Of a stretch of DNA of 64,000 nucleotides, positions 27,700 to 31,707 are shown in pieces; positions within the stretch are counted from its first letter, which is position 1, and the number at the start of each line of letters is the position of its first letter. Below the pieces are notes generated by a model. It was not told the origin of the DNA, searched no databases, and saw only the letters and a list, made by a program, of their open reading frames with translations. The stretch lies in the NCBI GenBank assembly GCA_000004985.1, contig GG738905.1; one strand, written 5' to 3'. A program made the translations under genes and the position numbers. The DNA comes from Naegleria gruberi. Its lineage: Eukaryota.

Positions 27700-28342
27700 A
27701 TGCAAAGAATGGTTGTACAAAGTGAAGGTGAGAAACACCTTCAAGCCTATTTGGAATATAGAATGATTGTTGGTGATCGGGATGGAGGAGTTTTATTACC
27801 TGAGGCTGAATATGAAAAATTGAGGAAAGAATTTTATGCAAAACGAGAAGAGCACAACTTGCATTTTGTTGATACAAGCAAGATGATTTCAGGTGGAAAA
27901 AACAAACGTCTGCAATCTGGATCGGAAGAGATGAAATATGAACAGAGAAAGCAAAAAGGATCAAAAACAAAAGTGTATTCATCCATATCTCCCTTAGAAT
28001 TGTATAACAAGTAAGTGTCACAAATAATGATTGTATTATTTAATATGATTATTTATTAGAGAGCCTGATTTTTCATTATCTCAATTTAGGACAATTCCTG
28101 AGGAGCCTGTAAAATCAAGAGTTTACTCTTCCAGAATGCTACCATTGAAAAAACCTTCCTCTAACACCATTTCATCAACAACTTCCACAACTAACAGTAG
28201 ACCATCATTATCAAAACCATCATCATCATCCACAACGAATAGAAAACCATCATCTACACCAATAGATAGGAAGCCACTTCCATCAGTATCTCGATTTACT
28301 GAAGTAAAAAAAGAAGTGAGAACTACCTCAATTAGAAAATAA
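27700..28342 (+). CDS. Hypothetical protein with a Ser/Thr/Pro-rich C-terminal tail. Two exons.
   Basis: Exon 1 is 27700-28010, with a GTAAGT donor. Intron 28011-28059 ends in tatttattAG. Exon 2 is 28060-28342, in frame. The overlapping minus-strand ORF 27638-28021 has no such support. Confidence 0.5.
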
Positions 28343-28390: not shown

Positions 28391-30448
28391 TTACATGGAG
28401 AAATCCAAGAGATCTTGGTTGGCTGGTTGAGTTTTGGTGGGATTGGATTCATTGTCATCGATTTGATTGATTGAAGAATCAGAAGTGTTAAATAGATCTT
28501 GACTATCAACTTGAATAATCTCTTCAGTTAATAGTTTGTAATTTTGGATAATGAATGCAGCGGCTTTGAATTTTGGAGTAATACCTTCTTTATCACCACA
28601 ATCATCTTTTACACTTCTTTGACTTGGAATTTTAGTGGAAAGTAATAAATGAGAGAAAATCATTGACAAGTCCTTAATATTTTGTTCTGTAGTGGTATAA
28701 GCATCACTAACCATACACAAAAATTCACAAACTCTATACAATATGTGAACATTATCTTTTGGAAGTGTTTTGATAAATTCTTTGAGGGCAACTATTTTTT
28801 CTTCAAATGTTAAATTGGTTGCATTACAGAGGTCAATCATCTTTCTGTAATATTGAGATGTTAAAATTGGTTCTGGAAGTGATTCCAAAAAGTAGCATAT
28901 TAAAGATGCTACTGAATAAGGTGATGTATCGTGGTCTGACAATAAATCTTGCTCATCATGAATATGTCCATGATCAAAATTGAGCATTAATCTAAGCATT
29001 AATGTATCTTGCATGTCGTAATTTGTGGAAAATAATTTTGGAAACTCTAAAGCAGCACTCTTTTTAAGATAACTCACACAAATATCGATCATATGTCTAC
29101 TTCTTTCATCAATTTCAACTCCAAACATTGGATTTGAAGTGGTACCATTCAAGTAAATCATTGATGAATAAGCATAAGACGATCCAGATCTTCCTCCAAG
29201 AACTATTAATCTATTGTTGAAAATTAATGTTTGAGCATTAACTATTGTACATTCAGGTGATCCAATACCTGCAGTAGAAAGGTTATAATTTCTAATATTA
29301 TATATAAGTACATCATCCAAAATTGGTTCTCTCATAGTTAGCAGAGATCTAGGTCTATCCAATAATTCACCTCCAACTATGAAAATAAAATCATCAAAAA
29401 TATCTGCCGAGCCCCATCTAGCTGGAATAAGATCCATCATGTCAGATCTTCTAGGAATTAGTCCTGATATTTGCCAATTACCACTGGCAATATCATATTC
29501 CAAAATTTCCTTAAATGGAACATCTTCACCTCGTTCACTTGTTCCACATCCACCAACTACATAGAATTTTTCTCTCTTTTCACATAAAACCATCATGTGA
29601 CCATATCTACCTGGTCTTGCAGGTGATTTGAGTTGTTTCCATACATTTAATTTGGTATCAAACATCCAAAAATCATTGAGAGGTTCAGGAATTGCTCTTT
29701 TCAAATTTTGGAGTGATAAATAATATCCTAATCCTTTTGGTTGTTGATTAATTGAATAATTAAAACCTTCACCTCCATAAACATATAAGTTTCCTTTGAA
29801 AGAACAAGCAGAATGATATCTTCTTGGTTTTGGTATTGGTAAATCGAGAGGTGTTCTGATTCTTTGAATTGTATTTTGAGATAAATCAATATCATAAATA
29901 TATGGATCATATTGAGTATTAACATCTGATGTACTTTTTCCAGACAATCCTTTGAAGAAATTATTTAAATTAGTACCGACACTTGATGGATTATAACCAA
30001 TTTGTCCGCCATACAATAGTAATCTATTTTCATAAATTTGATTCACTGTGTGATGGGCTCTTGGTCTTTGTTCAAATTCCGCAATAATATTAGGATCTTC
30101 TTCCTTTGCCAATTGTAATTTTACAAATTTCCAGTCCAATTTTTCAACATAATATAAATGCAATGGATTTTGAAATTGATTAAATCTAGTCTTTCCTCCA
30201 TGAACATAAAATCTATTCGGATCCTTATGTCCTTTAATATGAACGGCAGCAAATCCCTCCGATGGAAATGGAGCAAATTCATCTCTAATCATGTACATAT
30301 CATCGTTGTGCAATATTTGCCATATATTTACAGGTTTACTTGGTGATTCTGCTCCGGGCACTCCATCTGTTGTATTCAAAAAGTAGGCTATTGATTTTTC
30401 AAAGGCTGTATTAATTCCATTAGAGAGTTGATCGATGGGATTCTGCAT
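28391..30448 (-). CDS. Kelch/galactose-oxidase-type beta-propeller fused to a C-terminal RhoGAP-like domain.
   Basis: 685-aa intronless ORF. The N-terminal two-thirds has repeated propeller blades with GG motifs (RFYVHGGK, LLLYGGQIG, NLYVYGGEG, KFYVVGGCG, IFIVGGELL, LIVLGGRSG). The C-terminus has RhoGAP-like helices (PYSVASLICYFLESLPEPILT, VHILYRVCEFLCMV, NIKDLSMIFSHLLL). No obvious GxFRxSG arginine-finger motif sits at the expected position (the sequence there is EFPKLFSTNYD). Confidence 0.6.
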   Translation of the reverse strand: MQNPIDQLSNGINTAFEKSIAYFLNTTDGVPGAESPSKPVNIWQILHNDDMYMIRDEFAPFPSEGFAAVHIKGHKDPNRFYVHGGKTRFNQFQNPLHLYYVEKLDWKFVKLQLAKEEDPNIIAEFEQRPRAHHTVNQIYENRLLLYGGQIGYNPSSVGTNLNNFFKGLSGKSTSDVNTQYDPYIYDIDLSQNTIQRIRTPLDLPIPKPRRYHSACSFKGNLYVYGGEGFNYSINQQPKGLGYYLSLQNLKRAIPEPLNDFWMFDTKLNVWKQLKSPARPGRYGHMMVLCEKREKFYVVGGCGTSERGEDVPFKEILEYDIASGNWQISGLIPRRSDMMDLIPARWGSADIFDDFIFIVGGELLDRPRSLLTMREPILDDVLIYNIRNYNLSTAGIGSPECTIVNAQTLIFNNRLIVLGGRSGSSYAYSSMIYLNGTTSNPMFGVEIDERSRHMIDICVSYLKKSAALEFPKLFSTNYDMQDTLMLRLMLNFDHGHIHDEQDLLSDHDTSPYSVASLICYFLESLPEPILTSQYYRKMIDLCNATNLTFEEKIVALKEFIKTLPKDNVHILYRVCEFLCMVSDAYTTTEQNIKDLSMIFSHLLLSTKIPSQRSVKDDCGDKEGITPKFKAAAFIIQNYKLLTEEIIQVDSQDLFNTSDSSINQIDDNESNPTKTQPANQDLLDFSM

Positions 30449-30564: not shown

Positions 30565-31707
30565 TTATTTATTTTGATTATTGTTGGTATTGTACCATCT
30601 GAAAACATATTTGATATATTCATAAGTTGTCCATGTGACAGCTGCTGAAGGTGTGAAATAAACAACTCTAGGTATAGATCCTCTAAAGAGATTTTTAAGT
30701 AATCCTCCTTCTTCTTTCCTCAATAACGAAATTGCTTCCTTAACAGTATCTGCTTGACCTACTTGTAAAAGAGTTTTCACAACATCAAATGGATTGGAAA
30801 CGAGTCCACCAACTGCACCTGCTGCACCACCTGCCATGAAATGCTTTACATGTTTCCATTCATCGTGGTCATGATCATGGTCATCGTGGTGATGGTCGTG
30901 GTCGTGGTGGTCGTGGTCATGATGGTCAAATAATTTCTTTTTCATATATTCATAAGTCACAAAGTGGAAACTAGTATATGGAATATTCATCAAAATTGTA
31001 GTTGGTAAACTGACAAAGAATGCTCTAAGACCTCTTGTGGCATAAATTTCACGTGTTGCACTCATTAAATTATAATTTTGAACATGACCTTTCAATTGCT
31101 TTAAATATTTCAGTAAAAAAACTATTTGAAAAATAGACAACATACCATATGTTGCTTAATAACATCTGTTGGAGTTGCAATACCATCATGTGCAATAGTT
31201 GCTGCAATACCAGCAAGTGCACTAACACTCCAATCATTAACATATTGAGTTTGACGTCCTTGTAAAATATTTTTAACAGCTTCATAAGTTGTGAAATAAA
31301 ATGCATGAGATGGTAAAGCTCCATATAACACAACAGTCAATCCACTATAAAAATTACGAATTCCTCCAATAGATTTAATACTTTTAAATATTCCTTGATT
31401 ACTCGATTGAACATAAGTCTTGATAGTATCAATTGGATACATTACTAAATTTCCACACAATTATGTCAAATTAATTAAAGAATCAAAATTTACCTGCGTG
31501 TTCAACTAAGCCGGCCATAGCACCAGCAGTCATATATTGCATTGGATTACCTTTTAATTCATCATTATCTTCCATTTCTTCAACGTGTGTCAAATAAACT
31601 GGTTGTTTTACACCTTGATTTAAACGACTTGTTGAATTAATTTCCTCCTCTTCCACTGTGGAACGATCCTTCCTCCTTGATAATTTATCTTGATTATAAT
31701 TATTCAT
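30565..31707 (-). CDS. Mitochondrial carrier, mitoferrin-like (iron importer family), with a His/Asp-rich loop. Three exons.
   Basis: Exon 1 is 31707-31494 with a GTAAAT donor. Intron 31445-31493. Exon 2 is 31444-31146 with a GTATGT donor. Intron 31099-31145. Exon 3 is 31098-30565. The spliced protein reads ...[30 protein letters not shown]..., matching the mitoferrin N-terminal carrier repeat. Further carrier signatures follow. Exon 3 carries an HHDHDHHDHDHHHDDHDHDHDE insertion. Confidence 0.7.

Follow-up and report, generated by a model that had tools for sequence, protein, structure and literature searches.

The window analysed here comprises 64,000 nucleotides of the Naegleria gruberi contig GG738905.1 (NCBI GenBank assembly GCA_000004985.1) and is AT-rich, with about 30% GC. 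At positions 28391..30448 it carries a gene, located on the minus strand like all features of this gene described below, for a protein in which an N-terminal Kelch beta-propeller is fused to a C-terminal domain with the fold of a Rho GTPase-activating protein (RhoGAP) that lacks the arginine finger. We refer to it as the N. gruberi Kelch-RhoGAP-like protein. According to the open reading frame (ORF) listing, the gene is a complete single-exon ORF (685 amino acids plus stop), which starts with ATG, contains no internal stops and is preceded by in-frame stops immediately upstream of M1. From residue 51 to residue 685 the protein matches, with 100% identity, the 635-residue NCBI entry 'rho GTPase activating protein [Naegleria gruberi]' (P0001), which starts at M51 and leaves the N-terminal 50 residues (30299..30448) outside the gene model. 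The orthologue in Naegleria fowleri (P0002, 687 amino acids) shares 67% identity with the N. gruberi protein. At its locus a mitochondrial-carrier (Mito_carr) gene adjoins and GET4 lies farther along, and because both genes are also present in the window we regard the two genes as syntenic orthologues. The N-terminus of the N. fowleri protein shows 52% identity to the first 50 residues. The codons ahead of M51 are therefore probably coding, the longer ORF being the real one and P0001 being 5'-truncated.

An initial annotation of the locus had proposed that this single 685-residue ORF combines a Kelch propeller of six or more blades with a C-terminal RhoGAP-like domain, and the Pfam profile search that it suggested (RhoGAP PF00620 and Kelch) indeed matched both. 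Pfam Kelch families cover residues ~128-423 (PF24681, E=1.1e-26; PF13418, E=5.7e-22; PF01344, E=1.5e-10). In addition, six 'hydrophobic-GG' Kelch signatures occur at residues 84, 147, 225, 299, 359 and 418, with a spacing of 59-78 residues, and we therefore assign residues 51-425 (29174..30298) to a propeller of six blades, in agreement with the number originally given. In a full-length AlphaFold2 (AF2) model, which was built from a four-row alignment and is of low confidence (mean predicted local distance difference test score, pLDDT, of 53), the blades are beta-strand with pLDDT values of 70-86, the loops and the closure of the propeller being uncertain. Neither a BTB nor a BACK domain, nor any other domain besides Kelch and RhoGAP, was detected in the Pfam search at E<=1. 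This rules out that the protein is a ubiquitin-ligase adaptor of the BTB-BACK-Kelch (KLHL) type.

The RhoGAP-fold domain, a putative pseudo-GAP, spans residues 445-645 (28514..29116). Pfam RhoGAP matches residues 453-605 at E=1.6e-19 with a score of 70.7 bits (cut-off, 24.5), and the match covers profile positions 3-146 of 148. A separate model of the GAP domain shows the all-helical RhoGAP/BH fold with a pLDDT of 93; the full-length AF2 model, in which the finger region has a pLDDT below 50, was not used for this domain. The homologues for the domain alignment were collected by a search with a 14-sequence alignment, which returned 23 RhoGAPs, an earlier three-sequence search having returned 2. 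The strings quoted in the initial annotation are all present in this domain, namely VASLICYFLESLPEPILT at residue 513, VHILYRVCEFL at residue 567 and EFPKLFSTNYD at residue 468.

The usual site of the arginine finger is the loop that joins helices A and A1; its limits in the modelled secondary structure are residues 464-481 (29006..29059; SAALEFPKLFSTNYDMQD). The column of R282 (=R85) of p50RhoGAP is occupied by S474 (29027-29029), within KLFSTNY. The same placement was obtained in five alignments: a phmmer alignment to p190, in which GIYRVSG stands opposite KLFSTNY; MAFFT alignments of the family; a search with a hidden Markov model built from finger-bearing RhoGAPs only against the fingerless proteins; an end-to-end alignment of the family profile with human p50RhoGAP (E=1e-36); and a direct MAFFT alignment including p50. 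No arginine is found in the loop 464-481, and its sole lysine is K471. The same condition is shared by a set of proteins, designated Group 1, that lack both the finger arginine and the lysine with which it is paired in canonical RhoGAPs. This was the case in all five members (N. gruberi, N. fowleri, P0006 from Acrasis kona, and the metagenomic proteins P0003 and P0008). K471 was considered as a substitute finger and rejected, because its column reads K, R, N, Q and N across this clade. Of the six arginines in the entire GAP-like domain, just two, R486 and R535, are kept throughout the clade. The absence of the finger, together with the domain architecture, is far beyond chance. The earlier claim that the finger is missing is thus confirmed, and its corollary, that the domain is inactive as a canonical GAP, is well supported: judged by the loss of the finger, the domain is very likely to be without canonical arginine-finger GAP activity.

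The finger is not the only functional residue that has been replaced. Arg282 and Lys319 together are the functional hallmark of the RhoGAP domain, and R323, N391, V394 and P398 are its binding determinants (PMC8305018). In the alignments, K319 (=K122) and R323 in helix B are replaced by C518 and E522 (28883..28897), and N391, V394 and P398 in helix F are replaced by D593, M596 and H600 (28649..28672). In the C518 column each of the five clade members has a hydrophobic residue, and the change of V394 to methionine is the sole conservative one among the binding determinants. As a result, five of the six catalytic and binding residues in the published list (PMC8305018) are changed non-conservatively, and they vary among the clade members. 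With K319, R323, N391 and P398 all substituted, the 'GTPase-binding' function that the initial annotation had ascribed to the domain is not supported as stated.

These substitutions also bear on the possibility that the protein is a working Rho or Rac GAP of a non-canonical kind, which would draw a basic residue from elsewhere (K471/R471, R486 or R535) or would act by stabilising the catalytic glutamine of the GTPase. In its favour, the domain has an intact fold with good conservation, including the LPEP motif and the hydrophobic core; all clade members have R486 and R535, which canonical GAPs lack; and the NCBI name reads Rho GTPase activating protein. That name, however, is an automatic domain-based label. 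Position 471 is unconserved, and R486 lies about 12 residues, or about three helical turns, into helix A1 past the finger, which would be too far from the nucleotide site as judged by this spacing rather than by a measured distance. Moreover, the loss of K319, R323, N391 and P398 along with the finger speaks against a preserved canonical GTPase interface, and we consider an active enzyme of this kind improbable.

When 1.84 billion cluster representatives were searched exhaustively with HMMER, 596 matches were obtained at E<=0.001, mainly Kelch-only or RhoGAP-only proteins. Among the best 150 of these 596 matches are at least 17 distinct proteins with the Kelch-then-RhoGAP architecture that are collinear over both domains. 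The orthologues that the initial annotation had suggested looking for were thus found in N. fowleri and A. kona, along with metagenomic relatives of the same architecture, and its description of the domain combination as unusual needs to be qualified: the combination is rare and uncharacterised, yet it is not unique, and most of these proteins have an intact finger. Our literature searches found no published description of the Kelch-RhoGAP architecture or of the N. gruberi gene. Besides the five members of Group 1, we distinguished a Group 2 of 12 metagenomic Kelch-RhoGAPs, 11 of which retain GxFR and the lysine (for example P0009, P0010, P0016, P0020, P0029, P0036, P0051, P0056, P0116 and P0137). 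The exception is P0012, with a lysine in place of the finger arginine and a valine in place of the paired lysine. The finger-bearing proteins resemble the N. gruberi protein in having an N-terminal Kelch and a C-terminal RhoGAP part, with 23-32% identity, and they mostly also keep N391; in contrast to Group 1, they do not have R486, R535 or the insert at residues 612-625 described below. Their contigs consist of gene-dense eukaryotic DNA. When the GAP domains were placed in a neighbour-joining tree, monophyly had 88% bootstrap support for Group 1 and 41% for all Kelch-RhoGAPs together. The common origin of the two groups, and the direction of change from an active to a dead domain, were deduced from the shared architecture and from the universal presence of the finger in RhoGAPs, and not from the tree. 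Loss of the finger is recurrent, since the arginine is missing not only from P0012 but also from three protist or metagenomic RhoGAP-only proteins, P0175, P0177 and P0178, which read DLFN, DLFT or DIFV.

Several of the Kelch-RhoGAP fusions carry misleading automatic names. The A. kona protein P0006 (KAL0486351.1) is called 'negative regulator of sporulation PMD1', and names such as 'N-acetylneuraminic acid mutarotase' and 'DNA-binding ferritin-like protein (Dps family)' occur among P0009, P0156 and P0157. On the metagenomic contig of the fingerless P0003, a hybrid histidine kinase (PAS-HisKA-HATPase-response regulator) adjoins the gene (L003 10130-13252, minus strand), a neighbour that fits a protist genome, for example of a heterolobosean or an amoebozoan.

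The positions that are conserved in Group 1 lie elsewhere in the domain. An invariant signature that is not found in canonical GAPs consists of R486 (helix A1), R535 and D539 (both in helix C), S/T599 and, after helix F, an insert. This clade-specific insert (residues 608-625, 28574..28627; PSQRSVKDDCGDKEGITP) contains the motif SVKDDxxDxxGxxP at residues 612-625. None of the five fingerless proteins departs from it, whereas p50RhoGAP and the relatives with a finger either lack it or differ there; in the model it has high confidence. The hydrophobic core positions are common to Group 1 and the active GAPs, and the structural LPEP motif is kept. Between N. gruberi and N. fowleri, the GAP-like domain shows 71% identity and a nonsynonymous divergence (dN) of 0.23, compared to 74% and 0.19 for the Kelch part; the synonymous divergence (dS) is saturated between the two species, so that dN/dS can only be bounded. 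Because the GAP-like domain and the propeller are conserved to the same degree, we conclude from these comparisons that the GAP-like domain is held by purifying selection and is not decaying. This bears on the idea that the RhoGAP-like region is a relic in decay or an artefact of the gene model, such as a missed intron that hides an exon with the finger. The Pfam score of 70.7 bits, which is far below the 110-350 bits of the relatives, would fit such an idea. Against it stand the continuous ORF, the complete domain model with its pLDDT of 93, and the fact that Acrasis and the syntenic orthologue of N. fowleri carry the same substitutions; together with a constraint equal to that on the Kelch part, they leave it with a very small probability. 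A pseudogene or a mis-spliced model, in particular, is refuted by the continuous ORF, the complete model and the constraint.

Compared to the canonical RhoGAPs p50RhoGAP/ARHGAP1, RICS/ARHGAP32, p190/ARHGAP35 and ARHGAP15, the N. gruberi domain is distinguished by the absence of the arginine finger, the paired lysine, R323, N391 and P398, and the protein by the addition of the SVKDDxxDxxGxxP insert and the fusion to Kelch. Nevertheless, its best matches in both sequence and structure are the active GAPs RICS, p190, p50 and ARHGAP15, with OCRL and p85 ranking lower, and no nearer kinship to the known pseudo-GAPs (OCRL1/INPP5B, the p85 BH domain, ARHGAP36, DEPDC1A/B and FAM13B) than to active RhoGAPs was observed. 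OCRL1 and INPP5B have another architecture (5-phosphatase-ASH-RhoGAP-like) and are not nearest by sequence or by structure. As the protein is no closer to any of these pseudo-GAPs than to active GAPs, the loss of the finger is an independent one. The human RhoGAPs without a finger, ARHGAP36, CNTD1, DEP1/2, FAM13B, INPP5B and OCRL1, are catalytically inactive; of these, OCRL1 binds GTP-Rac1 through its fingerless RhoGAP-like domain and does not stimulate hydrolysis (PMC8305018). The BH domains of p85 alpha and beta have a RhoGAP-like fold and no detectable GAP activity, and they lack most of the binding determinants R323, N391, V394 and P398 as well as the surroundings of the finger (PMC8305018). 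The same set of residues is altered in the N. gruberi protein. By analogy, the N. gruberi protein would act like the known pseudo-GAPs while representing a separate lineage, and it is an instance of a known theme and no new class of system.

Based on the present data, we consider it likely that the domain is a non-catalytic RhoGAP-fold binding module, or pseudo-GAP, carried by a Kelch adaptor. An active Kelch-RhoGAP ancestor would have lost catalysis in the heterolobosean lineage that includes Naegleria and Acrasis while the fold was kept, and the domain, being presumably unable to accelerate GTP hydrolysis through a canonical arginine finger, would now work by binding. The Kelch propeller could serve as a platform for protein-protein interaction that provides a second partner or a localisation, which would make the protein a cytoplasmic adaptor in the sphere of Rho signalling or the cytoskeleton. 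Some observations weigh against this reading. The GAP-domain tree, with its 41% bootstrap value, gives weak support to a shared ancestry with the Kelch-RhoGAPs that have a finger. Another part of the fold might supply a catalytic residue (R486, R535 or K471), which is unlikely. Mutants of p50RhoGAP without the finger retain residual stimulation by stabilising the switch regions of the GTPase. Accordingly, 'inactive' may mean that activity is strongly reduced and not zero.

With respect to the ligand of such a binding module, there are two options. GTP-bound Rho or Rac could be held without hydrolysis, as by OCRL1, or a ligand other than a GTPase could be bound on a new conserved surface, as in the p85 BH domain, in ARHGAP36 and in the binding of F&H peptides by OCRL; the latter is considered because the contact residues are lost. 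The first option corresponds to a true binder of Rho/Rac-GTP, effector-like or sequestering, which would tether the active GTPase to the Kelch partner and which overlaps with the pseudo-GAP reading. This is possible, although we lean away from it: the precedent of OCRL1 (PMC8305018), the richness of Naegleria in Rho-family GTPases (25 in a pangenome analysis, PMC9928731) and the preserved overall fold would suit it, but the non-conservative changes at five of the six listed determinants and their variability in the clade suggest that the canonical interface is free of selection, and the positions conserved in the clade (R486, R535/D539 and the insert 612-625) lie elsewhere. Because the pattern of losses resembles that in p85, binding of a Rho GTPase by the domain is doubtful. 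Since the contact residues are changed and variable in the clade and conservation has moved elsewhere, the comparison favours a repurposed surface over a canonical GTPase interface. A more specific scenario, which we put forward tentatively, is that an ancestral Kelch-RhoGAP enzyme became a heterolobosean adaptor and lost GTPase recognition, and that R486, R535/D539 and the insert bind another ligand and link it to the Kelch partner in amoeboid motility or in the switch from amoeba to flagellate.

The value of these results lies mainly in annotation, since the NCBI name 'rho GTPase activating protein' and the name 'PMD1' of the Acrasis protein overstate or misstate function. The 14 RhoGAPs that were reported next to 25 Rho-family GTPases in the pangenome analysis (PMC9928731), and other such tallies for Naegleria, probably include at least one non-catalytic member, the N. 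gruberi Kelch-RhoGAP. The family would also represent a clean natural case of the conversion of an enzyme to an adaptor, in which catalytically intact relatives of the same architecture allow a comparison. It could help to address which ligands RhoGAP folds without a finger have in a motile amoeba that is related to the pathogen N. fowleri.

Outside the two domains, the C-terminal tail (residues 646-685, 28394..28513) is disordered, with low pLDDT values, and weakly conserved: apart from the terminal LLD[FL]SM, it shows 27% identity to N. fowleri. The final residues LLDFSM (28394-28411, minus strand; LLDLSM in N. fowleri) are thus kept while the remaining tail diverges. They loosely resemble a short linear motif of the clathrin-box type, and they are missing in the Acrasis and metagenomic members of the clade, whose proteins stop directly after the GAP-like domain. 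The upstream neighbour (30565-31707, minus strand) is the mitochondrial carrier, which is spread over several ORFs, suggesting the presence of introns. Between its carrier repeats lies an unusual run of 22 residues composed only of histidine and aspartate (DHHDHDHHDHDHHHDDHDHDHD, ~30862-30927), possibly a metal-binding loop. On the other side, two short ORFs on the plus strand (27700-28014 and 28136-28342) converge on the 3' end of the Kelch-RhoGAP gene. One of them is a weak FAM221 match (E=4e-4) and the other is of Ser/Thr/Pro-rich low complexity; they may be exons of a small convergent gene, such as N. fowleri has (213 amino acids) in the corresponding position.
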